53,401 nt of DNA from Candidatus Ozemobacteraceae bacterium (GTDB lineage: Bacteria; Muiribacteriota; Ozemobacteria; Ozemobacterales; Ozemobacteraceae). The stretch is from positions 1 to 53,401 of the forward strand of contig DATCTT010000376.1 of the NCBI GenBank assembly GCA_036567845.1, in the 5' to 3' direction. Below, in pieces: positions 1-36,790 of the stretch. A program made the translations under genes and the position numbers. The notes below the pieces were generated by a model. The model was not told where the DNA came from. It did no database searches and saw only the letters and a list, made by a program, of their open reading frames with translations. How positions within the stretch are numbered: the first letter of the stretch is position 1; each line of letters begins with the position of its first letter.

Positions 1-1228
1 CGCTCCGGCTCCCGAACCCGCCGGCGAGGAGTTCGCGGGGGATGACTTCACCCGCAAGCGTGGCTTCACCCAGCCCCGCACGATCACGCTCGACACCAAG
101 TATGAAGGCGCCGTCGCGATCGACGTCTGGACCGGGTATGCCGTACTCGTCGTCGGCCGGGCTGGAGAGCGGAAGGTGATCGCGGGTCCGCAAACATATC
201 TCCTGGAATATGACGAATCGCTCGAAAGTCTCGAGCTGTCGACCGGCACCCCCAAGAGCGACGACAACAAGATCAAGACGGCGTATCTGCGCGTCCTGCA
301 CAACAAGGTTTCGGACATCGTCGAGGCCGAGACCAGTGATCTGTGCCGGGTGCGTCTCAAGCTGTCCTATCGGGTGAACTTCGAGGGCGATCCGAACAAG
401 TGGTTCAATGTCGAGAACTATGTGAAGTTTCTGACGGATCACATGCGCTCCCTCGTGCGGCATGCCGTGAAGCAGCACCGGATCGAGGAGTTCTACGCGA
501 ACGCGATCAAGTTCATTCGCGACACGATTCTCGGCACGGCCGGCAGCGACAACAAGCGGGCGGGCCGCAGCTTTACCGAGAACGGGATGCACATCTACGA
601 CGTGGAAGTGCTCGACGTGAAGATCGGCGACGAGGCAATCGAGAAGCTGCTGATCGATGCCCAGCACTCGGTCGTCAAGCAGACCCTCGAGATCGCCTCC
701 CAGAAGCGCCAGCTCGACTTCACCCAGCAGAACGAGTCGATCCGTCAACAGATCGCCGAAGCCCAGTCGAAGACAAAGCAGCAGGAGTTCGACCTGCTGA
801 CCCGGGAAGCGCGGGCCCAGCTGACGCTCAATCTGGCCAAGATCGAGTCGGAGAGCGAGGCTCGCCGAAAGAATCTCGATGCAAAGTTGGCGGACCAGGA
901 TGCAATCGGCAAGATCGACGCCGCCGAGCTCGCCCGCCGCAAGGATGCCTTCGACCTCGAGGTCGACGTGGCGAAGCGCAAACTCGCCCTCCGGATCGAT
1001 GAGCTGAAGAGCGAGACCGAGGCCGTCATCGGCAAGGCAGGCGCCGTCACGCCCGAGCTGATTGCCGCCCTCCAGGCCTTCGGTGACAAGGCCCTCGCCG
1101 AACGGATGGCTCAGAGCATGGCACCGTTGGCCATTCTCGGCGGGAAAAGCATCTCGGACGTCTTTGCCCAGCTCTTGAAGGGCACAGCCCTGGAAGGTGT
1201 TCTCAAGACGAAACACGAGACCAGGTGA
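1..1228 (+). CDS. Major vault protein (MVP) homologue, 5'-truncated by the window start. It reads in frame 2 with no stop from position 2 to the TGA at 1226-1228. The fragment covers the last MVP repeat domain, the shoulder, the cap-helix coiled coil and the cap-ring.
   Basis: The open frame runs to the window edge. The translation aligns motif by motif with rat/human MVP as I recall it. ...[18 protein letters not shown]... matches [49 protein letters not shown] matches [47 protein letters not shown] matches [28 protein letters not shown] matches NGLVVSSVDVQSV. The C-terminal [15 protein letters not shown] matches GSTPINLFNTAFGLLG. A roughly 150-residue E/A/K/Q-rich heptad coiled coil lies between shoulder and C-terminus, as in the MVP cap-helix. 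Confidence 0.7.
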   Translation, partial: [408 protein letters not shown]

Positions 1229-1237
1229 CCGGTTCCG

Positions 1238-1267
1238 AAGGCCCGGCCCGACCAACGGCCGGGCCTT
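1238..1267 (+). terminator. Perfect 11-bp stem-loop (aaggcccggcc-N8-ggccgggcctt) between the MVP gene and the next gene. The downstream T-tract is weak (caatatatat), so it may be a partial terminator or an mRNA-stabilising hairpin.
   Basis: The inverted repeat was read directly. It lies in the 62-bp gap between the stop at 1228 and the ATG at 1291. Confidence 0.35.
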
Positions 1268-1290
1268 CAATATATATCGAAAGGCATTGT

Positions 1291-2394
1291 ATGTATCGCT
1301 ACACGAAAAATGCGGCGTTTTTGTTCCTGGCCGGAGCGTTGTCGGCCTGGATGCCGGCCGTGGCCGCGCCACCGACCGGTCCCGAGGAGTGCATGGTGAT
1401 CGGCGAGGAAGCCGACACGGTCAAGGGGACGAAACTGTATATGGACGCGGTTTCAGCGTGGCGGCAGGGGCTTCGCCAAAAGGCCCTGGACCAGTATGAA
1501 GCAGCGCTGCTCGCCGACCGGGGCGTTCTCGCCCGTCCCGACGAGGGAATGGCTCTGGCCCTCCTCGAGCGGTATCGGGAACGCGTGGGAACAGCCTCGC
1601 CGACCGCCGGCCTGCTGTGCCGCCAGGGCTTTTTCGAGAACATCATCTCGGGCAACCTCGAATCCGCCATTGCCGAGTATCGGAAGGCCGCGGCCATAGC
1701 CGGAACCGAGGCCGCGAAGCAGACGGCAGCGCGCGAGGCGGATCGCCTCCAGGCCCAGCTCGAGTATCTCCGGACCTGGCAGGCGGAGTATCGCCGAAAA
1801 GTCGCCCTGCAGCGCCGTCAGCAGGATGCGGAAGTCGTCTTTCAGGGCAGGGTCGAAGCTGTCGACGACCGGATCGTCCAGCTCGAGGACGAGCGGGCCG
1901 AACTGGAAGAGCGGCTCGCCTACCTCCGGCGGCAGGAGGCGGATGGCCGCGAGGAGCTGATGACCTCGATCCGGCGCGCCTCGCGATACCGGCGAGCTCA
2001 GTATTATCCCGGCCGTGAATACCAGCCCGATGTTCCCGCCACGTCGTATCCCGGCCCCGCGGTCGGACCGCTCCCTTCGCCGCCCCCCGGCGCCCCCGGC
2101 CCGCTCCCCTCGACGACTTCAACGTCGCCGACCCCGACACCAACCGTTCCCACCTATCAGATGCCCACGGAGGGATCGAATCTGTCGCTGTTCTATCGGA
2201 ACCGGAATGAGGCCCTGCAGAACGAGTCCGCCCTCTACAGCATTCGGGCCGAAATCACCGGCGTCGAACGCCGGATCGAGGAGATCGACAAACTGATCGA
2301 GAAGACCAGCAAAGAGCGGGACGAGCTGTTCAACCCGCCCCCCGCGAAGAAGCCCCCGGTTGTTGCCACGGGTTCGACCCCGATTCGGGAATGA
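1291..2394 (+). CDS. Hypothetical secreted protein. It has an N-terminal signal peptide (MYRYTKNAAFLFLAGALSAWMPAVAAPP), coiled-coil segments and a Pro/Ser/Thr-rich linker (PSPPPGAPGPLPSTTSTSPTPTPTVP).
   Basis: ATG at 1291 with a GAAAGG ribosome-binding site 6 nt upstream. The signal-peptide-like N-terminus and codon usage match the neighbours. The listed ORF start at 1225 only reflects the absence of an upstream stop. Confidence 0.6.
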   Translation: MYRYTKNAAFLFLAGALSAWMPAVAAPPTGPEECMVIGEEADTVKGTKLYMDAVSAWRQGLRQKALDQYEAALLADRGVLARPDEGMALALLERYRERVGTASPTAGLLCRQGFFENIISGNLESAIAEYRKAAAIAGTEAAKQTAAREADRLQAQLEYLRTWQAEYRRKVALQRRQQDAEVVFQGRVEAVDDRIVQLEDERAELEERLAYLRRQEADGREELMTSIRRASRYRRAQYYPGREYQPDVPATSYPGPAVGPLPSPPPGAPGPLPSTTSTSPTPTPTVPTYQMPTEGSNLSLFYRNRNEALQNESALYSIRAEITGVERRIEEIDKLIEKTSKERDELFNPPPAKKPPVVATGSTPIRE

Positions 2395-2407
2395 TCCCCT
2401 CGTGAAG

Positions 2408-2440
2408 AAAAACCGCCGGCCAGATGGCCGGCGGTTTTTT
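2408..2440. terminator. Bidirectional rho-independent terminator. The stem ccgccggcc-agat-ggccggcgg is flanked by A5 upstream and T6 downstream. It serves the convergent genes ending at 2394 (+) and 2456 (-).
   Basis: Perfect 9-bp GC stem with an A-tract on one side and a T-tract on the other. Confidence 0.8.
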
Positions 2441-2455
2441 CGTTGTATCAGTAGC

Positions 2456-3115
2456 TCAGGAGAAGAACTTGAGCAGGTCACGCAGCTGGGTCTGCAGCTC
2501 GACGAGCCGCGGCTCGGGCTTTTCCCCGGCCATGAAATTCACCTGACGAAGAATCGTCTTGAGTACCGGCACGAAATGGTCGGCGCCCGCTTCCTTCTTA
2601 TACTTGGCCAGATACTGGGCAAGCACGCGGGCCTTCACCAGATCACCGTCTTTCAGATCGTTGATGATGAGTTCGCTGATACTCTCCTGCACGAAGGCGA
2701 GGAACTTGTCGTTCTCGAGGCGGCGCAGGCCCACGACGTTCTCGGCAAAACTGCCTTTGCTGGTGATCGCGATGTTGATATGGGTCAGAAGCTGGCCTTT
2801 GTTGGTGCGAAGCACAAGGCGGGTCTTGCCATTCTTCCATTTCTCGACCTCGCCCTTGGCATGAACCATGAACTGGCCCTTCGGGTTGCGAACGACCCAT
2901 TTGGACTCACCGCTCCAGGACTCGAGGCGGCCGACGCCCCAGCCGGCAAACGTCCCGTCATCCTTGCGCACGACGAACTTGATGCCCTTGTTTTTCCAGA
3001 CCTCGTATGCCTTTGTCAGATTCGTGACGGTGGGCTGCTCTTCGGCAGCCAGAGGCAGAATCGACAGAAACAGGGCAAAAACGATCATCAGGGACAGAAA
3101 AAGACGTTTGTTCAC
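2456..3115 (-). CDS. Hypothetical secreted, lysine-rich protein with an N-terminal signal peptide (MNKRLFLSLMIVFALFLSILPLAAEE).
   Basis: 219-codon ORF with a signal peptide. It is somewhat more AT-rich than its surroundings. It is flanked by a terminator downstream and a promoter-like AT-rich region upstream. Confidence 0.6.
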   Translation of the reverse strand: MNKRLFLSLMIVFALFLSILPLAAEEQPTVTNLTKAYEVWKNKGIKFVVRKDDGTFAGWGVGRLESWSGESKWVVRNPKGQFMVHAKGEVEKWKNGKTRLVLRTNKGQLLTHINIAITSKGSFAENVVGLRRLENDKFLAFVQESISELIINDLKDGDLVKARVLAQYLAKYKKEAGADHFVPVLKTILRQVNFMAGEKPEPRLVELQTQLRDLLKFFS

Positions 3116-3198
3116 AGAATTCCTCCGTCAATCTATTGAATTCGCAATTTTATTGATTCTACCAGATTTTTTGTGACGCCGCAAACCGCAGGAAGTTT

Positions 3199-3227
3199 TT
3201 GACAGGCATTTCGGTGGTTGCTAGGAT
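3199..3227 (+). promoter_or_regulatory. Sigma70-type promoter, TTGACA-N17-TAGGAT, positioned to drive the gene at 3296.
   Basis: Consensus -35 hexamer, 17-bp spacer and a TAnnnT -10, about 65 nt upstream of the ATG. The same hexamer pair recurs at 52439. Confidence 0.5.
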
Positions 3228-3295
3228 ATCGTGCAACGCCCGGTTGAATGTGCGCCCCCACCATCGGGCACCGAACGGATCTGAAAGGAGCTTTC

Positions 3296-3940
3296 ATGAC
3301 CCAGCCGACGCAGCCATCAGAAGCCGGCCATCCCGTGTTCGGAGGTTTTTTTCCAATCTACCTGATTGCCGCCGTCATGTTGATGGTGTATTACACCATC
3401 GATTTTCAGGTTCGTGTCTCCCCCGTCATCCGCGACCTCCATGCGCGGACATCCGTGACCTCCAAACCGGCCGCCACGCCTCCCGCCCCGGCAAGCCCCT
3501 CGCCTCAGCCCCATCCGCAGACCGGCATGATTCTGTCCGCATCCGATTCTTCATCCGTCAGCCAGGCTCCGGCCCCGGCAACACCCGAAGCGGTCATCAC
3601 GGCGCCAGAACCCGCTCCCCCAGCCCCGGCGGCCATTCCCGCCACCGAATCCCAGCCGGCCCCTGACGCACCTGACACTGCCGCCCCCTCCGCGGTTTCC
3701 TCCGAGCTATCTGCCGATGTCCCACCGGCGAATGCCACGGTTTCCTCCGAAACGTCCCCTGTGACCCCGCCAACGGACGCGCCGATTTCCTCGGAACCTT
3801 CCACCGTGCTCCCGCCGACGGATACACCGGCTCCCTCTGAGCCCGCATCCCTCTCCCCGGAAACGAGCTCGGCCTCTGAGACCGTTCCGGCTTCGGCGGA
3901 GCCGGCTTCATCACCCCTCGCCCCGGAGGTAGGACAATGA
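3296..3940 (+). CDS. Hypothetical membrane-anchored protein. One N-terminal TM helix (FFPIYLIAAVMLMVYYTI) is followed by a long Pro/Ala/Ser/Thr-rich low-complexity tail.
   Basis: ATG at 3296 preceded by AAAGGAG. A P/S/T/A-rich region of about 170 aa. The stop overlaps the next start as ATGA. Confidence 0.55.
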   Translation: MTQPTQPSEAGHPVFGGFFPIYLIAAVMLMVYYTIDFQVRVSPVIRDLHARTSVTSKPAATPPAPASPSPQPHPQTGMILSASDSSSVSQAPAPATPEAVITAPEPAPPAPAAIPATESQPAPDAPDTAAPSAVSSELSADVPPANATVSSETSPVTPPTDAPISSEPSTVLPPTDTPAPSEPASLSPETSSASETVPASAEPASSPLAPEVGQ

Positions 3941-5787
3941 ATCTGCTCACTCGGTTTTTCGGCGGCCTCCCCGGACTGGTTCTTGCGCTGGTGTCCCTCA
4001 TCATCGCGTTCATCCGGGTGAATGACGTTGCCATCTGCTCTGTGGCCTTGATTCTGAACGTCCTCGTGGCCCGACTCGTCCATCGCCAGACGCTCCAGCC
4101 AGGGCTCCCAGCCGGCTCCTTCCGGTCGATGTTCACCGCCGCCGGGTATACGGCCGTCGCAGCGGCCTTGTATCTGAACCGCGTTCAGCTCCCGTTCGGC
4201 GGGTGTTTCAAAAGTTTCAGCCCAATCGTCGTCCCCTTCATTTTCCTTGCTATTCTCGGTGTCCACTGGGTCAACCGGCGCCTCCACGACGCCGCTCTCG
4301 CCGGCTTTCCGACGAAAGGAGACCGGTGGCTGGCCGAACCAGCGCACGTCGCCGAAGTCGAGCGTGGGTTCATCTGCTTCGGCGTCACGGGAACGCTGTG
4401 GACCCTCGTACTTTCGGCCTGGGTCACGAAGTTCATGCAGCTTTCCCAGGTCAACGCCCTGGGATTCCTCGACTCATCGCTGCATCTCGCCGCCCTGTAT
4501 GCCCTGTATCTCCTGCCGTGGTTCTGTTTCGCCTGGTGGGTCGGGGAACCAGCCGTCAAGCGCGGCATTTATGCCGGGTCCGGTATTTCCCTGGCGGCGG
4601 CTCCCCTTGCCTATCACTGCTACTACCACTCGCTTTCATCCGGCGACTGGTGGCAGATCTTCCTTCCCCCCGGGTCTCATCTGGCGGCGATAACCTTTTT
4701 CGTCACCACCGCGTTTTTTTTCTGGTGGGTGCGGCCCACGGCCTCGACGCGCGGAAGTGGGATCCTCAGTGGCTTCTACCTTGCCATCATTCCGACCATC
4801 CTGCTCCTGCCCGGCATCTATATGATCCTGGCTTGGCATCCGCTGTTCCGTGACGCTTTCGTTCAGGCTCCCAATGTTTCGGCACTCCTGAGCCGCTTCT
4901 ATCCCCTGATTTCAAAGATCATTCTCTTCAGCCCCGTGCCGATCCTGCTCGTCTTTCTGGCTGCAACCTTCGGCGGCACACGTTCCGCCCAGATTTCCGG
5001 GGAACAGGCCACGCAGGTTCCGGGAAGCACGACCGTGGCCGCGGCGGGCTCCCAGACCTTCACGATCCTCCTCGGCCTTCTCCTGCCGCTTCCCTTCCTC
5101 ACCAACCTGCTCACCCAGCTGTTCGCGTTCAGCACGACGTCTGCCGGGGCTCATTATATACCGGCATATATTCTTTCAGCCGCGGCGTTTTTCCCGCTGC
5201 TGTTCGCGGATGTCTTCGTGTTCGCCGGCCTCTGGTCGGCCGGTGCATTCATCGCCCGCGCCTCGCGCCTCCCCCACCCGCAGATGGCCGGAGCAGCCCT
5301 GTTTCTCCTGCAGGCCGTGCTGATCTGGGGATACGATCCGCGCCAGAAGCTCGTGGCCCTGTTCGCAGCCATCCTTGCCGCCCTGCTGATCCTGAAAAAG
5401 ATGTTCGGCGAGACGATCGACGAGTCGCGACGTTCAATGCTCGATTTTCAGCGGTATGTCCTCTGGAGCTGTTTCCTGGGCATGCCGGTCCTGTTCCTGA
5501 CCAGCTTCTCGGTGCTCAGTTTTTTCATTCACTCAGAGCAGCTCGGCAGCCTCGGCAAGCTCTTCGCCCCCGCCACCCGCCCACTTGGCCTCCAGTCTCT
5601 TGGCGGGCTTCTCCACCCCGAGGCGTTCTGGGCTTCGTATCCGGCGCTCACGGCGGCCATCGGTCTGGTGTTTCTCCTCGGACTTCCGCTCATCTGCGTT
5701 CCGCTTTACCTGTATCCCATGTTCAAGGACCAGAAAGCCGCCGAATCCGTGCTTCCCAACACCCCGCCCCCGGCTTCGGATGCCTGA
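3937..5787 (+). CDS. Hypothetical polytopic integral membrane protein of 616 aa with more than 12 predicted TM segments. Translationally coupled to the preceding gene.
   Basis: Long hydrophobic ORF with a 4-bp ATGA overlap with the upstream gene. It contains a T8 homopolymer at 4714-4721. Confidence 0.6.
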   Translation: MNLLTRFFGGLPGLVLALVSLIIAFIRVNDVAICSVALILNVLVARLVHRQTLQPGLPAGSFRSMFTAAGYTAVAAALYLNRVQLPFGGCFKSFSPIVVPFIFLAILGVHWVNRRLHDAALAGFPTKGDRWLAEPAHVAEVERGFICFGVTGTLWTLVLSAWVTKFMQLSQVNALGFLDSSLHLAALYALYLLPWFCFAWWVGEPAVKRGIYAGSGISLAAAPLAYHCYYHSLSSGDWWQIFLPPGSHLAAITFFVTTAFFFWWVRPTASTRGSGILSGFYLAIIPTILLLPGIYMILAWHPLFRDAFVQAPNVSALLSRFYPLISKIILFSPVPILLVFLAATFGGTRSAQISGEQATQVPGSTTVAAAGSQTFTILLGLLLPLPFLTNLLTQLFAFSTTSAGAHYIPAYILSAAAFFPLLFADVFVFAGLWSAGAFIARASRLPHPQMAGAALFLLQAVLIWGYDPRQKLVALFAAILAALLILKKMFGETIDESRRSMLDFQRYVLWSCFLGMPVLFLTSFSVLSFFIHSEQLGSLGKLFAPATRPLGLQSLGGLLHPEAFWASYPALTAAIGLVFLLGLPLICVPLYLYPMFKDQKAAESVLPNTPPPASDA

Positions 5788-5858: not shown

Positions 5859-8201
5859 TCAGGCAGAGACCGTGTTCTGCCGGTTGAGATATCCCATGGC
5901 CTTGTTCTGATCCCCGTCCATGATGATCGACATCGTTGCCCCGTCGGCAATGGCGGGGATATGAATGATCCGCAGAACGTTATCGATCGTGGCCGGCACG
6001 TTCTTGCCGGCAAAGCGCTTCAGGCAATTCGGCGCGTTCCGAAAAAACTCCTCCAGGAAATGGTTGCCTGGCTCATCGGGATAGAGCGGCAGATATTTGA
6101 TATTCGCCTCAACAAGGTCCTGGAAGAAGTGGGTGCCAAACGAAAGGTCAGGGGTGTAATCGAGCTTCCGCCGCGCAATCTCGATCATCATCGATGTGTT
6201 GTTGATATCGCTGTAACCCACCTTGACGCCGAGTTTGATGTCCCCACGGCTTCCCCAGCGACCGGGACCCATCAGAATGAACTTCCGTTCCGGCAGCCGC
6301 TGGTTCAGCTCGCCCACGAGACGACCCACTTCCAGCATCTCATCGAGCGTTGCAAGCGCGTCATATCCAGCCGGATCGACATAAACGATATATTCGACGC
6401 CGTGAACTATAGCCGAAGTTATATATTTATTCGCCGTGAACAGCCGATCCTCGAGAGGGACATCCTGCGGGACGGGCGTATTGATTGCACCATCCGCCTG
6501 ACACTGCGGCCGGCACTGGAGCAGATACAGGGTGTGCTGGTCCTCCCCCGCCGCAAATTCGATATCTACGGGCCAGCCGAGCGCGTCCTTGAGGATCCGG
6601 AGAATATCTCGGATTTCCTGCAGGAAGGGGGTGGTCTTGAGAAGATTTTCGAACGTGAGGACCGGCGTGCCCTCCTTGAGGTTCGTCAGGGTGCCGATCG
6701 GGGGATACAGCTGCCCTTCCTCGTACATCGAGATGAGATACGAGAGCATCGGGATCTCGCTTCCGAAATCCCGGATCACCTGTTCGAAGTTGAGGGTCTC
6801 GAACCGGCCGGTGTCGAGATTGAGAACGTCGATGCTCTTCTGGGCATACCGCAGCATCGCATCGGGAGTGATATTGACACGCAGTCCGGGCTGGCCGGGA
6901 CTGACGAGCATCGGGAAATCCTCGCCCATCCGGTCAACGGCCCGCGTGCCGAGCCCGGCAACCAGGCGCACGATCCCGTCTTCCCGGCGGATCCGCGGTG
7001 ACCATCGGAACTCGTTGCTGCTGAACGCGACGCCGGCGAAGGCAGGGAACCAGTAGTTTCCCACCCGTCTGCCGACAACCTGCTGGATCATGATGCCCAT
7101 CTCTTCGTTGAAGTCCAGCAGCCCACGCTCGCGCCGATACTCAATCGGGTCGGGGCCGAACGTGCTGGCATACACCTCGACGATCGCATCCATGAGGGCT
7201 TCAAGCCGCTCTTTCTTCGTGCCCTGATTGGCGACGAACAGGCTCTTGTATTTCCCGGCGAAGGCCGACCCCTTTGTATCCTCAAGCAGGCTCGATGACC
7301 GGACGATCAGGGGCGTCTCGCCGAAATCCTCGAGCGCCAGCGACAACCCCGCAACGATGTCGGGCGGCAGGCTGGAGTTCTTGAAGATCTGGCCGACATA
7401 GGCGTATTCCTGCCGGATCTCGGCCGGATCCCGGTATTTGATCGTCGGCATCTCCTCGAGGGCATTGTAATGCAGGAATTCGAGCACCCCATCCGAAGTG
7501 ATATACCACGTTTTGGGCACCGAAAGGTTGCGCAGCCCGATGTTGTGCGCTTTGGCGGCCATCAGGATCTTCGCGGCCCGGAACAGGCCGGCGGCCTTTC
7601 CGCCCAGCTTGCCGTTCCCTTGAGCCGGGCCGATCACGCGGGTCATCAGGTGGGCGAAATCGTTGACCGAGACATAATGCTTGAGTGTATTGATGTATTC
7701 GAGATCTTCGCTGAAAAACCGCCGGATCAGCGCAACCCGGATGCCGATCCGCTCTTCCCGGGAAAGATGCTTCTGTGCACCGGGCTTGAGGCAATACCGG
7801 TGCAAGGCTTCACTAATCTCGGTGAGAGCGATGTCGCGCTTTTCCGCGGCCATCGACAGGAAGCGAAACTGCTCCTGCTTCATCCAGAGACTCAGCATGC
7901 GGGAAATGTCCTGCGGCGACAGTTCCTGCTCGGCGATGATGAAGGTCTCGTCGATCAGCTCTTCAAGCATCGATGAGTTGATCCGCGGCATCGGCTGGTT
8001 ATCGAAGGTGCCCGTAGCCGCCTGGTAATCGGCCTGGGTGACGTTCAACCGCTGCAGCAGCTGTTCGACTTTCTTCACATTCCGCTTGAACAGATAATTC
8101 ATCATCTTCCGGCCAAGCCGATTCAGCAGAGACGGATTCGTCTCACGCAGCAGATCGACGATGACTTTCCATTCGGGTTTCTGTTCCCTGTTTCCTGTCA
8201 T
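5859..8201 (-). CDS. PEP/pyruvate-binding domain protein. It resembles the N-terminal nucleotide-binding domain of pyruvate phosphate dikinase / PEP synthase. No phospho-His swivel motif (GGRTSHAAI-type) is visible.
   Basis: The GGKAAGL motif and surrounding ATP-grasp-like region are typical of the PPDK_N / PEP-synthase nucleotide-binding domain. 780-aa ORF. Its start overlaps the end of the downstream transporter gene. Confidence 0.55.
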   Translation of the reverse strand: MTGNREQKPEWKVIVDLLRETNPSLLNRLGRKMMNYLFKRNVKKVEQLLQRLNVTQADYQAATGTFDNQPMPRINSSMLEELIDETFIIAEQELSPQDISRMLSLWMKQEQFRFLSMAAEKRDIALTEISEALHRYCLKPGAQKHLSREERIGIRVALIRRFFSEDLEYINTLKHYVSVNDFAHLMTRVIGPAQGNGKLGGKAAGLFRAAKILMAAKAHNIGLRNLSVPKTWYITSDGVLEFLHYNALEEMPTIKYRDPAEIRQEYAYVGQIFKNSSLPPDIVAGLSLALEDFGETPLIVRSSSLLEDTKGSAFAGKYKSLFVANQGTKKERLEALMDAIVEVYASTFGPDPIEYRRERGLLDFNEEMGIMIQQVVGRRVGNYWFPAFAGVAFSSNEFRWSPRIRREDGIVRLVAGLGTRAVDRMGEDFPMLVSPGQPGLRVNITPDAMLRYAQKSIDVLNLDTGRFETLNFEQVIRDFGSEIPMLSYLISMYEEGQLYPPIGTLTNLKEGTPVLTFENLLKTTPFLQEIRDILRILKDALGWPVDIEFAAGEDQHTLYLLQCRPQCQADGAINTPVPQDVPLEDRLFTANKYITSAIVHGVEYIVYVDPAGYDALATLDEMLEVGRLVGELNQRLPERKFILMGPGRWGSRGDIKLGVKVGYSDINNTSMMIEIARRKLDYTPDLSFGTHFFQDLVEANIKYLPLYPDEPGNHFLEEFFRNAPNCLKRFAGKNVPATIDNVLRIIHIPAIADGATMSIIMDGDQNKAMGYLNRQNTVSA

Positions 8202-31643: not shown

Positions 31644-34028
31644 ATGAAGATTCTGTTGAGCTGGCTTCGTGATTACATCGATATTCAGGTCACTCCCGAG
31701 CAGATCGCCGACGCCCTGCAGATGGCCGGCATCGAAGTCGAGTCGATCCATCAGCCCGGGAAGGGCCTTTCCAAGGTCGTCGTCGGCCAGATTCTCACCC
31801 GCGGCCCCCATCCCAATGCCGATAAACTGTCGATCTGCACCGTGAACGTCGGAGCGGCTGATCCGCTGAAAATCGTCTGCGGCGCCCCGAACTGCGACGC
31901 CGGCAACAAGGTGCCCGTCGCAATGATCGGCGCCTCGCTTCCCACCGGCTTTGAGATCAGGAAGGCGAAGATCCGGGGCGAGGAGTCGTTCGGTATGATG
32001 TGCAGCCGGCGCGAGCTCGGTATCAGCGACGAGCACGAGGGGCTCTGGCTCCTCCCGCCGGAAGCAAATATCGGCGAAGATATTGTGAAGGCCGCCGGCA
32101 TGGATGATGTGATCTTCGAGATCAGCATCACCCCGAACCGCGGCGACGCGCTTTCTCATCTCGGCATCGCCCGCGAGCTCTCGGCAATCTTCAACCTGCC
32201 GCTCCATCGCGAGGGCCTTGCCGGCCACGCCGGGGAAGGCGACGTCTCGTCCCAGACCAGCGTCACGATCGAGGCCCCCGACCTGTGCCCCCGGTACGGC
32301 GCGCGCATCGTCCGAAACGTCAGGGTCGGCCCCAGCCCCCGCTGGATGAAGGACCGTCTCGAGAAGGTCGGCCTGCGGGCGATCAACAATGTCGTGGATG
32401 TCACAAATTATATATTGATGGATATTGGTCATCCGATGCACGCGTTCGACCTTGACCGGCTCGAGGAGAACCGGATCGTCGTGCGACGCGCTTCCGAGGG
32501 CGAGAAGATCCGCACCCTCGATGGGACCGACCGCAAACTGACCTCCGAAATGCTCGTCATCGCCGATGCGGCCCAGCCGGTAGCGATAGCGGGTGTCATG
32601 GGCGGCTTCAACACGATGGTCACCGACGCGACATCGAGCATCCTGCTCGAGGCGGCCGTGTTCGATCCGATCAGCGTCCGGAAGACCTCGAAGCAGCTCG
32701 CCCTGATGTCCGACTCGTCATACCGGTTCGAGCGCGGCACGAACATTGACAACGTGCCGATCGCCCTCAACGAGGCGGCACGCCTTCTGGGCGAGATCGC
32801 CGGCGGCAAGGCCGCGGCAGGTATCGTCGATGCCTACCCCGCCCCCGCCCCCCTGAAACGGCTCATGCTGCGCACACGGCGTACCTGCCGCCTCATCGGG
32901 GTCGACCTGAAGCCGCAGCAGATCGAAACCCTGCTCCTGCGCCTCAAGTTCGAGGTGACGCGCGAAGGCGAGACGCTGTGGGTCGGCGTGCCGCCCTACC
33001 GGCACGACATCGAGCAGGAGGCCGACCTGATCGAAGAGGTCGCCCGCCTCTACGGCTACAACAACATCCCGGCGAAGCTGCCCGCGATTTCGGCCGCGCC
33101 ACGTCTGGAAACCCCGCTTCAGGCCCTGACAAAACGCATCCGCGACCATCTCACCAGCCTCGGCCTGCATGAAACGATGACCTACAGCTTCATCCCGGCC
33201 GCCACGCCGGCCGAATTGGCCGAAGGCGAGCCCCTGAAACTCCAGAATCCGCTTTCCGAAGAACTGGCCGTGATGCGCACCGGTCTCCTGTCCGGCATGA
33301 TCGATGCGGTCAAACGCAACGTGATGGCCGATGAGTATGACCTGCCGCTGTTCGAGATGGGCCGTGTCTTCCACCGCGGTGCCGGCGGCCTGTCGCAGGA
33401 GTTCGACCGGCTCTGCATCGGCCTGTGCGGCTCCGCCAACGCCTCCGACTGGCACCGCAGCCGTGAACCGAATGACCTCTACCGGCTCAAGGGGCTGGTC
33501 ACCACGATCGGCCACCTCGCCGGCCAGCAGATCCAGTTCAAGCCCGGCACTTCGCCCGCCCTGCATCCTTCCTGCCAGTTCCAGGTGCTCGTCGGCAACA
33601 AGCCTGCTGGCATTCTCGGCCAGATTAATCCCAAATGGCTCGACAACCGCAAGCTGCCACGGGAGATCTTCTTCGCCGAGATCGACATCGGCCTGATCGC
33701 TTCCCTGCCTCGTCCGATGCCCCGATTCAAGGCGATTCCCGAGTTCCCGGCCATCCGTCGCGACCTCGCCCTGCTGCTTCCCGTAACGATACAGCACGAC
33801 CAGGTGATCGGCATCGTGAAGGCGGAAGCGGGTCCCCTGCTCGAAGACGTGCGCCTGTTCGACGTGTATCAGGGAAAAGGCCTCGAGCCGGGCCGCCGCT
33901 CCCTCGCTTTTTCGTTGACATTCCGCTCGCCCGAGCGCACTCTTACAGAAGAGGATGTTCAACCCCGCATCGACGCCGTCGTCGCAAAAATAGGCCGGGA
34001 CCTCGATGGCCGCCTGCGAGACAAGTGA
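31644..34028 (+). CDS. pheT: Phenylalanine--tRNA ligase beta subunit.
   Basis: MKILLSWLRDYIDI... N-terminus, tRNA-binding/B3-4/B5/FDX-ACB domain order and an 794-aa length. It immediately follows pheS. Confidence 0.9.
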   Translation: MKILLSWLRDYIDIQVTPEQIADALQMAGIEVESIHQPGKGLSKVVVGQILTRGPHPNADKLSICTVNVGAADPLKIVCGAPNCDAGNKVPVAMIGASLPTGFEIRKAKIRGEESFGMMCSRRELGISDEHEGLWLLPPEANIGEDIVKAAGMDDVIFEISITPNRGDALSHLGIARELSAIFNLPLHREGLAGHAGEGDVSSQTSVTIEAPDLCPRYGARIVRNVRVGPSPRWMKDRLEKVGLRAINNVVDVTNYILMDIGHPMHAFDLDRLEENRIVVRRASEGEKIRTLDGTDRKLTSEMLVIADAAQPVAIAGVMGGFNTMVTDATSSILLEAAVFDPISVRKTSKQLALMSDSSYRFERGTNIDNVPIALNEAARLLGEIAGGKAAAGIVDAYPAPAPLKRLMLRTRRTCRLIGVDLKPQQIETLLLRLKFEVTREGETLWVGVPPYRHDIEQEADLIEEVARLYGYNNIPAKLPAISAAPRLETPLQALTKRIRDHLTSLGLHETMTYSFIPAATPAELAEGEPLKLQNPLSEELAVMRTGLLSGMIDAVKRNVMADEYDLPLFEMGRVFHRGAGGLSQEFDRLCIGLCGSANASDWHRSREPNDLYRLKGLVTTIGHLAGQQIQFKPGTSPALHPSCQFQVLVGNKPAGILGQINPKWLDNRKLPREIFFAEIDIGLIASLPRPMPRFKAIPEFPAIRRDLALLLPVTIQHDQVIGIVKAEAGPLLEDVRLFDVYQGKGLEPGRRSLAFSLTFRSPERTLTEEDVQPRIDAVVAKIGRDLDGRLRDK

Positions 34029-34061
34029 CAGACACGTGCACGGCGTCCAGGGAGGATCGTC

Positions 34062-34388
34062 ATGAGCGAACTGTATCAGATATGTCTCGATCAGGCCGTC
34101 GCGCAATTTATTGCCCTTGCTATCATCGGCCTGGTCTCCGGCGCCTGGGTCTACCGTCTCTGGTCCAACGCCCAACTCGCCCATGTAAAGCTAACGTTCG
34201 GAGAAAATCTGCAGATCTATATCTTCGGGGCTGCAGCCCTGATCGTCGCCATGATCATGTTCGGGTATATCGCCTTCCCCGGGAATGCGGACGCTCTCAT
34301 GGAGGCCCTCGGACTCAAGTATCCCCTGATGACGCTCACGCATTTTGTCCAGAGAGGTATGCTCTGGTTTGTGCGGCTCATGATGTGA
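34062..34388 (+). CDS. Hypothetical small membrane protein (108 aa, 2-3 TM segments).
   Basis: ORF in the gap between pheT and the next gene, preceded by GGAGGA. Hydrophobic segments are present. No recognisable family. Confidence 0.35.
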   Translation: MSELYQICLDQAVAQFIALAIIGLVSGAWVYRLWSNAQLAHVKLTFGENLQIYIFGAAALIVAMIMFGYIAFPGNADALMEALGLKYPLMTLTHFVQRGMLWFVRLMM

Positions 34389-34480
34389 GCCTGGTCGACC
34401 TACACCGCCGGCTGACGGATGACAATCCGCAGCCGGCGGTTTCCGTTCAAGGAAGCAGCAAAACGCATATGGAGGATGGT

Positions 34481-36790
34481 ATGAGACGCATTCCGCTGAT
34501 TCTTCTCCTGATCCTTGGGCTGGTCATCAGCCTCGGACGCCCCCTGTGGGCCGACGGGATGATCATCCCGTTCGACCCGGAGGATCCCCGTCGTGAGCGG
34601 GTCATCTTCCGGCCACCGATGCCCGAGCAAAACTTCACCGTCCCGATGTCGGTTACGCGGCACCACGTGAGCGTCGAGATCAAGGATATCGCAGCGACGA
34701 CGAAAGTCGACCAGGCGTTCTACAATCACGAGAACCGGGTCGTCGAGGGGCTGTATATCTTTCCGCTTCCGATCGGGGCCTCGATCAGCGGCTTCGCGAT
34801 GGACATCGAGGGCAGGATGACGAAGGGCGAGCTGCTCGACTCGGACAAAGCACGTTCTATCTATGAGAATATCGTTCGCCAGATGCGTGACCCGGGTCTG
34901 CTGGAATTTTTCGGGACCGGGCTGTTCAAGACCCGCATTTACCCGATCGAGCCCTTGAAGGAAAAGCAGGTGAAGATCGAGTATCAGGAAGCCCTGCGCG
35001 CAGAAGGGAATCTCGTGCGGTACGTGTATCCGCTGAACATCGAGCGGTTCTCGCAGGAGCCGATGAAGGACGTCTCGATTGAGATCAAGCTGACCTCGAA
35101 GACGCCGATCACGACGATCTACTCCCCCACCCACCCAATTTCGGTGAAGAAGAACGGGGATTACGCCGCGACGATCGGGTTCGAGGCCGACACCATCCGG
35201 CCCGACAAGGACTTCGTGCTCTACTACGCGCTTTCCCAGAAGGATCTGTCGATGTCGTTTCTGGCCAACCGGCCCGATCCGAGCGAGGACGGCAGTTTCA
35301 TGGTCATGCTCGCCCCGCGCAGCGAGCTGCAGCAGGCGGCGATGCCGGCGATCGACGTGGCGCTCGTGCTCGACACCTCGGGGAGCATGGCCGGCCCCAA
35401 GATGGACCAGGCCCGCAAGGCGCTCGAATTCTGCGTGAACGCGCTCAAGAAAGGCGACCGGTTCAATCTGATCAATTTCTCGACGGACGTCGACGGGTAC
35501 AAGAATGAGTTGCTCGAGATGGACGACAAGACCCGCGCCGGGGCGCTCGAGTATATCAAGCGGCTCGAGCCGGTCGGCGGCACGAATATATCCGATGCTC
35601 TCTTGAAAGCGATCCGCCAGCTCGAGGAGAAGAAGAGCGACCGCCCGTCGTTCATCGTCTTCGTTACCGACGGCAAGCCGACGGCCGGCCTGACCGAGCC
35701 CGAGGAGATCATCCGCGAGATCAAGTCGGCGAATGACAAGCGCATCCGCATCTTCACGTTCGGGGTCGGCGACCAGCTCAACGCCCCGTTGCTCGACCGG
35801 CTGGCCGACGAGCATGGCGGCGCCTCGGATTACGTTTCGGAGAGCGAAGACATCGAGGCGAAGGTCTCCGGCCTCTTCTCGAAGCTCACACATCCGGTCA
35901 TGACCGACGTGAGCCTGATGATCCGGAACGTCGACGTCTCCCAGATGTATCCGCAGCGGATTCCCGACATCTTCAAGGGAAGCACCGTTACGGTTCTCGG
36001 CCGGTATCGCGGCCCCGGTGACGCGCTCGTGACCCTGACCGGCAGCATCGACGGCAAGCCCGTCAAGCTCGACTACGAGGCCTCCTTCCCCGAACGGGAA
36101 ACCGAGAACGGCTTCGTCTCGCGCATCTGGGCCACCCGCAAGATCGGGTTCCTGCTCGACCAGATCCGCAAGAGCGGCGCCGACGAGGAGCTCAAGAACG
36201 AGATCGTGACGCTTGCCAAGAGATACGGCATTCTCACCCCCTATACCTCGTATCTCGTCGTCGAAGACAAGGAGCTGCCCGGCCCGAATCTGCGCCGCGT
36301 CATGGCCCCACCGCCCTCCGCCGGCGAGCCCGGCCCCTTCCTCGAGGAGGCCAAGGCCAGGTTTGACGGCCTCAGCAGCGCCCAGGAAGGCGCAGACGCC
36401 GTGTCGGCGGCCCGGGAGATGAACGTGATGAAATCCGCCGAGGCGCCGGTTCCCTCCCCATCGGTTGGCGGTTCGTCTGGACGCGGGTTCAGCAGTCCGG
36501 CTTCCCGCCAAGCGCTGTCGGGCGGTCTCAAAGCCCCAACCTCGCGCGAGATCGGGGACCGCACCTTTTATCTGCTCGAAGGGAAGTGGGTCGATGGCTC
36601 GGTGAAATCCGAAAAACCCGACCTGAAGATCAAGGCCTACTCGGCAGCTTATTTCGAACTCGCGAAGAAATACCCCGCGACCAACAAGTATCTGGCTCTC
36701 GGCGACCGCCTGGTTCTCAAGATCGAAGGCAAGACGGTCGAGATCACAACCGATGAAGGAGTGACGGAAGCCGCCGATCTCGGTTTCTGA
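34481..36790 (+). CDS. Secreted VIT (vault protein inter-alpha-trypsin) plus von Willebrand factor type A (vWA) domain protein of about 770 aa.
   Basis: Signal peptide MRRIPLILLLILGLVISLGRPLWADG. The N-terminal third (..VEGLYIFPLP..A.ISGFAMDIEGRM..GEL..) is VIT-like. vWA MIDAS motifs are present: DVALVLDTSGSM, GGTNISDAL and FIVFVTDGKPT. ATG at 34481 after GGAGGA. The listed ORF start at 33635 is only an upstream read-through of pheT. Confidence 0.7.
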   Translation: MRRIPLILLLILGLVISLGRPLWADGMIIPFDPEDPRRERVIFRPPMPEQNFTVPMSVTRHHVSVEIKDIAATTKVDQAFYNHENRVVEGLYIFPLPIGASISGFAMDIEGRMTKGELLDSDKARSIYENIVRQMRDPGLLEFFGTGLFKTRIYPIEPLKEKQVKIEYQEALRAEGNLVRYVYPLNIERFSQEPMKDVSIEIKLTSKTPITTIYSPTHPISVKKNGDYAATIGFEADTIRPDKDFVLYYALSQKDLSMSFLANRPDPSEDGSFMVMLAPRSELQQAAMPAIDVALVLDTSGSMAGPKMDQARKALEFCVNALKKGDRFNLINFSTDVDGYKNELLEMDDKTRAGALEYIKRLEPVGGTNISDALLKAIRQLEEKKSDRPSFIVFVTDGKPTAGLTEPEEIIREIKSANDKRIRIFTFGVGDQLNAPLLDRLADEHGGASDYVSESEDIEAKVSGLFSKLTHPVMTDVSLMIRNVDVSQMYPQRIPDIFKGSTVTVLGRYRGPGDALVTLTGSIDGKPVKLDYEASFPERETENGFVSRIWATRKIGFLLDQIRKSGADEELKNEIVTLAKRYGILTPYTSYLVVEDKELPGPNLRRVMAPPPSAGEPGPFLEEAKARFDGLSSAQEGADAVSAAREMNVMKSAEAPVPSPSVGGSSGRGFSSPASRQALSGGLKAPTSREIGDRTFYLLEGKWVDGSVKSEKPDLKIKAYSAAYFELAKKYPATNKYLALGDRLVLKIEGKTVEITTDEGVTEAADLGF

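Follow-up and report, generated by a model that had tools for sequence, protein, structure and literature searches.

Whether bacteria encode anything like the eukaryotic vault is the question raised by the first gene of a 53,401-nucleotide contig (DATCTT010000376.1, assembly GCA_036567845.1; hereafter the window, meaning the whole stretch) from a metagenome-assembled genome (MAG) of Candidatus Ozemobacteraceae, in the Riflebacteria. Vaults are among the largest and most conserved of eukaryotic particles, and forty years on there is no agreed function or origin for them. The gene is an open frame of 408 codons that can be read on the + strand from base 2 onwards and is closed by a TGA at 1226-1228; it has no start codon and its 5' end is open at the contig start, i.e. 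the contig begins inside the gene. Judged by its domain matches, it is a bacterial homologue of MVP (the major vault protein), truncated by the contig end, as an earlier note on this DNA had proposed. We regard homology to MVP as practically certain, and put at roughly 0.6 the probability of the further reading, that the product is a soluble, self-assembling cage protein of the MVP family. NCBI lists an identical protein under the title [quoted passage not shown] (P0001), and the other open reading frames (ORFs) listed over the gene (343..1002 on the + strand, 745..1089 on the - strand) are short overlaps in a G+C-rich region, without support.

The Pfam model MVP_shoulder (PF11978) matches residues 100-210 of the fragment at 109.3 bits (E=1.5e-31, cut-off 25), and it was matched in all 50 relatives tested. 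Vault_3 reaches 27.1 bits over residues 57-96, just under its cut-off of 28.8, and exceeds it in a 98%-identical orthologue (30.3-30.4 bits). When the fragment was compared by phmmer with all PDB chains, only MVP was found at E~2.5e-12 (query 52-337 aligned to rat 473-786), the best matches to other proteins having E>0.1. A family profile, built from an alignment of 90 diverse bacterial relatives, matches rat MVP with E=7e-42, and hhalign of this alignment against eukaryote-type MVP C-terminal halves (collected with the rat segment as query and then aligned) gave a probability of 99.84% and E=2e-30 over 534 columns, spanning the end of repeat R5, repeats R6, R7, R8 and R9, the shoulder and the cap-helix, and extending into the cap-ring. 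Identity to eukaryotic MVP is 20-25%. Chance is far from explaining the block-by-block match of last repeat, shoulder, cap-helix and cap-ring, which is real; on the 861 residues of rat MVP it extends from residue ~458, and so over about 45% of that protein's length at its C-terminal end rather than the third that had been suggested. The possibility that flotillin-like band-7 proteins would score comparably was raised in the same proposal. A search of the fragment protein with Band_7 (PF01145) gave no match even at E<=10; among relatives, P0019 reaches 22.8 bits, under the cut-off of 23.6, and 31 of the 50 tested have Band_7 matches at E<=1.

The domains can be placed along the gene with the help of an AlphaFold2 (AF2) model of the fragment, whose mean predicted local distance difference test score (pLDDT) is 81.5. 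Positions 2..112 (residues 1-37) encode a variable, probably disordered linker before the last repeat, with pLDDT <50 over most of residues 7-34. The last MVP beta-repeat domain, equivalent to R9, follows at 113..271 (residues 38-90), where the Vault_3 match and an alignment to rat 458-506 coincide with six beta strands modelled at residues 39-80 with pLDDT >90. The SPFH-like alpha/beta shoulder occupies 272..631 (residues 91-210) and was modelled as an alpha/beta domain at residues 90-208. It leads into the cap-helix at 632..1039, which in the model is one uninterrupted helix of 136 residues (211-346, pLDDT mostly >90) and which aligns to rat 647-~800. The remaining 62 codons before the stop (1040..1225, residues 347-408) encode a cap-ring-like C-terminal segment, of which hhalign places residues 346-388 opposite the eukaryotic cap-ring; the segment is aligned within the hhalign match, and to the start of the cap-ring in hmmsearch, with no significant score of its own, and it holds family-invariant residues (A..P....A...F.D and M.PLAI.GG.S). 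Foldseek comparison of the model with the PDB put twelve MVP/vault structures on top (E 4e-18 to 7e-15, 22-25% identity), and SPFH cages came next at E~1e-7, some ten orders of magnitude weaker; in the BFVD viral structures only SPFH-type matches were found. The MVP models win over the SPFH ones, and of the four domain blocks of the original proposal repeat, shoulder and helix are borne out by both hhalign and the AF2 model, with the cap-ring a putative fourth by its hhalign alignment.

The part of the gene that lies beyond the contig end can be read from a close relative. When GTDB species were scanned, each represented by one genome, a second Ca. Ozemobacteraceae MAG yielded a 5.7-kb contig (L003) carrying a copy that is identical to the fragment at 399 of 408 residues, with no indels. 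This copy (L003:147-2684) is complete, and its database version (P0121) has 845 residues, with a start, MPEASNRERDLVLAPNEY, that agrees with the family consensus; the window gene is therefore without its first 437 codons and corresponds to residues 438-845 of P0121, in which the shoulder falls at 537-647 and the cap-helix at 648-783. About 520 residues of repeats precede the shoulder. Residues ~220-375 give weak but colinear matches to rat R6-R8, the family profile likewise matches rat R6-R8 colinearly (domain E=0.023) and R1 weakly, and the last repeat ends in an invariant S..G.PK loop. From the family consensus compared with the rat repeats, together with the hhalign map, there are probably seven repeat modules, as against nine in rat, in the putative order R1-like, R2-like, one of R3-R5 type (containing a variable insert of ~30 residues), R6-like, R7-like, R8-like with a helical linker, and R9-like. 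The full gene and its MVP repeats, which the earlier note had suggested recovering and counting, were thus obtained, from the 98%-identical contig, with the count of seven standing as a probable figure. No signal peptide, membrane anchor or hydrophobic hairpin was found in the 845 residues, the highest 19-residue Kyte-Doolittle mean (1.28) falling inside a beta repeat. The ~700-residue "full-length" proteins that topped the first search were set aside as N-truncated gene calls; one of them, P0019, starts at an internal methionine just past an insertion sequence (IS).

Across the family the repeats and the shoulder are most conserved (majority fraction 0.60-0.73), with lower values for the cap-ring (0.42), the cap-helix (0.34) and two linkers (0.15 and 0.31), the latter being the stretch at residues 1-37, the least conserved of the family apart from the third-repeat insert. 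The cap-helix is nonetheless kept in a particular form. It is free of proline in 88 of the 90 relatives, and the motifs that flank it are 151 residues apart in 53 of them; most length variants differ from the modal length by 7, 11, 18 or 22 residues, steps that amount to whole helical turns, so that the helical phase is kept. Family-averaged hydrophobicity along the helix has one dominant period, of 2.25 residues (power 69, where the 99th percentile of shuffles is 36), and eukaryotic cap-helices have the same peak at 2.21 (106, against 80). A period of 2.25 is the alias of 1.8, or 3.6/2, i.e. a nearly straight helix that bears a hydrophobic stripe along each of two opposite sides. The heptad coiled coil of about 150 residues that had been read directly from the letters was rejected, since its power at periods 3.5 and 7 does not rise above what shuffles give; the helix itself, at ~136 residues, is there. 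Two opposite sticky faces would suit a one-layer palisade like that of the vault cap, in which each helix is flanked by two others, unlike a classical heptad coiled coil.

Compared with eukaryotic MVP (rat and human; PDB 4V60, 7PKZ, 9BW5), the bacterial protein has the same order of beta repeats, SPFH-like shoulder, very long cap-helix and putative cap-ring, is of similar length (845 versus 861-893 residues), is likewise soluble and anchor-free, and shares the two-stripe pattern of ~3.6-residue periodicity in the cap-helix. It differs in its low identity, in having probably seven repeats rather than nine (one of R3-R5 type instead of three), and in the distance from shoulder motif to cap-ring motif, which is 151 residues versus about 165 (measured from slightly different anchor points). 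Given the complete domain order and the two-stripe helix, the best-supported mechanism is one in which subunits self-assemble laterally to build a dome or cage. The chromosomal gene encodes a soluble MVP-family protein of ~845 residues, whose subunits would pack side by side, repeat on repeat and shoulder on shoulder, with the cap-helices forming a one-layer palisade and the cap-ring closing it. By analogy with eukaryotic MVP, the product would be large and hollow, a cytoplasmic dome or two-halved cage, and a closed homo-oligomeric cage is the somewhat probable outcome. The barrel of the rat vault is a 78-mer with D39 symmetry. The bacterial particle would fall short of the 67 nm of the rat vault, having about two repeats fewer and a cap-helix shorter by some one to two dozen residues. 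Homology, the order of the domains, conservation, the lack of a membrane anchor and a helix pattern in common with real vaults are shown by the data; the assembly, its symmetry, any cargo and the cellular role are what we infer here.

Several results speak against such an assembly and have to be set beside the ones above. No published prokaryotic MVP particle or experimental study was found in the literature searched. The cap-ring segment has pLDDT <50 in the AF2 model of the fragment, and the full-length AF2 model, based on 50 close relatives, is poor (mean pLDDT 50.5), its N-terminal 520 residues being unusable, so that neither the repeats of the N-terminal part nor the R1 "waist" domain is backed by a structure. 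Comparison of the seven putative repeat blocks with one another by hhalign gave no significant internal similarity, the best probability being 27%. None of the other components of the eukaryotic vault, namely vault RNA, TEP1 and PARP4, is evident in the loci examined. Specifically, no Rfam family, and so no vault RNA, was found at gathering score in the 53-kb window, and no TROVE/TEP1 or PARP domain (nor a TIR domain) in the 15 window ORFs scanned; the search for partners covered this window and the 10-kb flanks of relatives. In addition, the NAD+/ADP-ribose "keyhole" pocket of human MVP, formed by R504, K506, R507, P508, H509, R511, L517, D521, F522 and W545 (PMC12280208), has as its counterparts in the phmmer alignment T83, K85, S86, D87, D88, K90, R97, N101, K102 and V125 of the fragment. 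Only K506 and R511 (the latter as K) are kept of the ten, and the asparagine in place of D521 is invariant in the family. NAD+/ADP-ribose binding is thus probably not shared with human MVP, to go by this alignment; the pocket is known only for human vaults and is not family-defining.

The family turned out to be much larger and wider than the few published examples. In a pattern-limited genome scan, relatives were confirmed in at least 420 species genomes from more than ten phyla, among them Riflebacteria, Desulfobacterales (Desulfonema), Moduliflexus, Cytophagales/Microscillaceae, Anaerolineae/Caldilinea, Vulcanimicrobiota, Bacillota, Synergistia, Nannocystaceae/Polyangia, Sericytochromatia and Gemmatimonadaceae. 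A database clustered at 90% identity gave 6930 matches at E<=1e-20 among 8000 scored candidates, and a library clustered at 50% identity gave 1382 representatives at E<=1e-3, of which 660 had E<=1e-30; of the best 150 representatives ~140 are full-length (roughly 800-980 residues), the rest being shorter partial entries. Identity is 57-71% in most phyla sampled and 84-98% in closer Riflebacteria relatives, and complete genes code for 815-860 residues in nearly all of the 83 cellular loci. Hundreds of relatives already carry the name "major vault protein" at JGI. A scan of IMG/VR added 253 viral contigs with relatives that are 38-54% identical to the window protein and full-length, at about 800-920 residues (L083-L162 among them; for example L083 8001-9188, L086, L094, L127 and L152). 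Many of these carriers are contigs of 100-500 kb that are low in G+C (median 43%) and whose genes are small and lie on the same strand, and the neighbours are of phage type, including a homing endonuclease, a NinI-like phosphatase and phrog families. The view that bacterial copies are rare does not survive these counts of species genomes, 50%-identity clusters and viral contigs. Two of the carriers are in culture, Nannocystis exedens DSM 71 (L070) and Thermoflexibacter ruber DSM 9560 (L052), which makes the assembly question directly testable. To judge by the titles of loci L003-L082, bacteria with a filamentous form, gliding motility or a large genome seem over-represented among the carriers (Nannocystis, Polyangia, Microscillaceae, Thermoflexibacter, Desulfonema, Caldilinea, Moduliflexus), an impression that echoes the gliding-motility correlation of Sokolskyi 2019.

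Bacterial MVPs have, as the earlier note stated, been described by sequence analysis only, in publications that go back to 2013. Daly et al. 2013 (PMC3762200) reported homologues that share ~25% identity with the eukaryotic protein, from Corallococcus, Plesiocystis, Microscilla marina (A1ZGE7), Saprospira grandis (H6L4P8), Flexibacter and Herpetosiphon, and predicted in silico that they fold and dock like MVP. Sokolskyi 2019 (bioRxiv 10.1101/872010) noted a band-7 signal, the link to gliding bacteria and a similarity of the helix to TolA. A 2023 preprint (bioRxiv 10.1101/2023.11.10.566534) described two phage MVPs (Caudoviricetes ctOa11 and ct2Ri15) that grouped with the bacterial homologues, and gave mean lengths of 822 residues in bacteria and 859 in eukaryotes; the 253 viral contigs found here far exceed those two. 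A passage in a 2022 paper, on the other hand, states that vaults are absent from prokaryotes (PMC9778704). The window family resembles the reported bacterial MVPs in its identity to eukaryotic MVP of ~25%, its sub-threshold Band_7 signal, its length of about 820-850 residues and the lineages in which it occurs (Microscillaceae, Cytophagales, Nannocystaceae, Polyangia, Thermoflexibacter), and looks like the same family, a placement made by taxonomy and reported identities. The family is already known, in silico, and what differs is the host, since Riflebacteria, and Ca. Ozemobacteraceae within them, are a new lineage for it. The published phage MVPs share its architecture, whereas viral copies are 38-54% identical and reside in phage genomes and the window copy is chromosomal. 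Asgard archaeal MVP homologues, reported in 2026 with their assembly modelled only (PMC12962969), are also prokaryotic, with a cap-helix, a shoulder and a reduced number of repeats, but they are described as having five repeats and as recognised from structure, their sequence similarity lying in the twilight zone, whereas the present family has about seven and is easily detected by sequence.

One may also consider explanations other than a soluble cage. The shoulder is SPFH-like, and the protein might accordingly act as do HflK/C, flotillin, prohibitin or stomatin, forming a single dome or ring on the cytoplasmic membrane that organises or sequesters membrane proteins. We consider this unlikely. 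The SPFH cage proteins (HflK/C, QmcA, flotillin, prohibitin, stomatin, erlin) are membrane anchored, lack an N-terminal beta-repeat barrel and are shorter (240-430 residues), whereas here the position of the SPFH membrane anchor is taken by the ~520 residues of MVP-type repeats and neither a transmembrane segment nor a hydrophobic hairpin is present; identity is 7-19% to SPFH proteins against 20-25% to MVP, and the 109 bits of the MVP model stand against a Band_7 signal that is absent from the fragment and below threshold in the family. A slightly less improbable alternative, though still an improbable one, is that the protein has the MVP fold and does not close into a cage, forming instead open sheets, rings, filaments or a long TolA-like coiled-coil scaffold with another role. 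This would fit the lack of an experimental particle, the lower conservation of cap-helix (0.34) and cap-ring (0.42), the two missing repeats and shorter helix relative to rat, and the reported similarity to TolA (10.1101/872010). However, that similarity is limited to the low-complexity helix, and no TolA or coiled-coil protein scores near MVP; moreover, the domain order of a cage former has been kept over more than ten phyla at 57-71% identity, together with a two-stripe helix as in real vaults.

The question of origin bears on function as well, since the gene could be a mobile or phage-derived accessory gene with a role in phage-host conflict, either as an infection-stage shell or as a component of a defence system. 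The numerous large, low-G+C viral carriers with their phage-type neighbours, and the phage MVPs already published (10.1101/2023.11.10.566534), are in line with this, and the patchy distribution combined with high identity across phyla suggests horizontal transfer. At one locus on a metagenome contig (L001, 9557-13018), moreover, the gene has an internal start directly behind an IS (DDE_3 transposase and helix-turn-helix) and is followed 45 nt downstream by a 280-residue TIR-domain protein that matches the defence models Aga TIR-PNTD, SAVED-TIR and ThsB. Yet such a TIR neighbour was seen at one of 162 loci, and no PADLOC or PHROG family matches MVP, so that membership in a defence system was rejected; cellular copies are also tighter (57-71% identical) than viral ones (38-54%). 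In the window, the G+C content of the gene (61.8%) is like that of its flanks and housekeeping genes (pheT, transketolase) lie on the same contig, from which we take the copy to be chromosomal. We therefore hold a conflict-related accessory gene to be improbable, at about the level of the membrane scaffold or a little below. Finally, MVP is best known from eukaryotes, and Daly et al. weighed horizontal gene transfer from eukaryotes for cyanobacterial copies (PMC3762200), which would make eukaryotic contamination of the MAG, or a recent transfer from eukaryote to bacterium, conceivable. This is effectively refuted by the identity of only 20-25% to eukaryotic MVP, the bacterial genes contiguous with it on the 53-kb contig, the 98%-identical copy that a second, independent MAG of this family carries, and the presence in many Riflebacteria genomes of copies at 61-85% identity.

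Taken on its own, the window copy, a truncated gene in an uncultured MAG, adds a host phylum and no new principle, and will not surprise a specialist. What is new is the full-length architecture read from the sister contig, the breadth of the family including large phage contigs, the absence of a conserved partner gene (see below), the non-conservation of the NAD+ pocket and the two-stripe cap-helix signature common with eukaryotes. A prokaryotic family that has the full MVP architecture, and that is found in hundreds of species from more than ten phyla and on hundreds of phage contigs, makes the function and origin of vaults accessible to genetics. We would give even odds to the broader proposition that bacteria and many large phages build vault-like cages from an MVP of ~830 residues, shorter than eukaryotic vaults and made of the shell protein alone, and that the eukaryotic vault descends from a widespread prokaryotic/viral nanocompartment; if so, the window gene would be one chromosomal copy of that prokaryotic/viral nanocompartment system.

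All-against-all clustering of neighbouring ORFs revealed no conserved neighbour, either across phyla in the 83 cellular loci or in 80 viral loci. Those that occur most often are PAS/HisKA kinases (20 loci, at scattered positions), ABC transporters and lepA (five loci). The lack of a conserved neighbour fits a shell that needs no co-encoded partner, because eukaryotic MVP alone forms vaults (PMC7916137, and a passage in PMC11203631). Within the window, a protein at 33635-36790 (+ strand), whose real start is probably near 34.5 kb, has a VIT ("vault protein inter-alpha-trypsin") domain, a vWA domain and a signal peptide, MRRIPLILLLILGLVISLG. The pair of VIT and vWA domains is also found in the vault protein PARP4. 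As a PARP4-like partner it was nevertheless rejected, given its signal peptide, its distance of 33 kb from the MVP gene and the lack of a counterpart near other MVP genes, and we judge its presence here a coincidence. The TIR neighbour at L001 recalls TEP1, the TIR-like NADase inside human vaults. At another locus, in a MAG (L002, 3797-10521), an ankyrin-repeat protein is encoded 58 nt downstream of MVP and an 872-residue protein with TPR and CHAT (caspase-like) domains upstream on the opposite strand, an arrangement not seen at the other loci examined.

The surroundings of the gene in the window comprise a PPDK-like enzyme, transporters, pheT and transketolase. Nine nucleotides past the MVP stop codon, at 1237..1268 on the + strand, lies a G+C-rich hairpin of 12 bp followed by an AU-rich stretch, with a fold energy of -30.5 kcal/mol (z=-3.3 versus shuffles). 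It was not called in a strict or consensus terminator scan, as it is without a T-run, and it is likely to mark the transcript end or to act as a stabiliser. The next ATG downstream, at 1291, opens a series of four consecutive same-strand ORFs (1291-5787, +; 367, 259, 230 and 616 residues) with no Pfam match. The first of these combines a signal peptide with a coiled coil and a proline-rich stretch, and is conserved in no loci but L003-L005, the three closest from Riflebacteria; its weak LmuB-like match in PADLOC (E=3e-4) is probably due to the coiled coil. Beyond these ORFs, at 5859-8201 on the - strand, is the PPDK-like gene, encoding a protein of 780 residues with PPDK_N (the ATP-binding domain of pyruvate phosphate dikinase) as its sole domain, and thus a kinase that resembles PEP-utilising enzymes.

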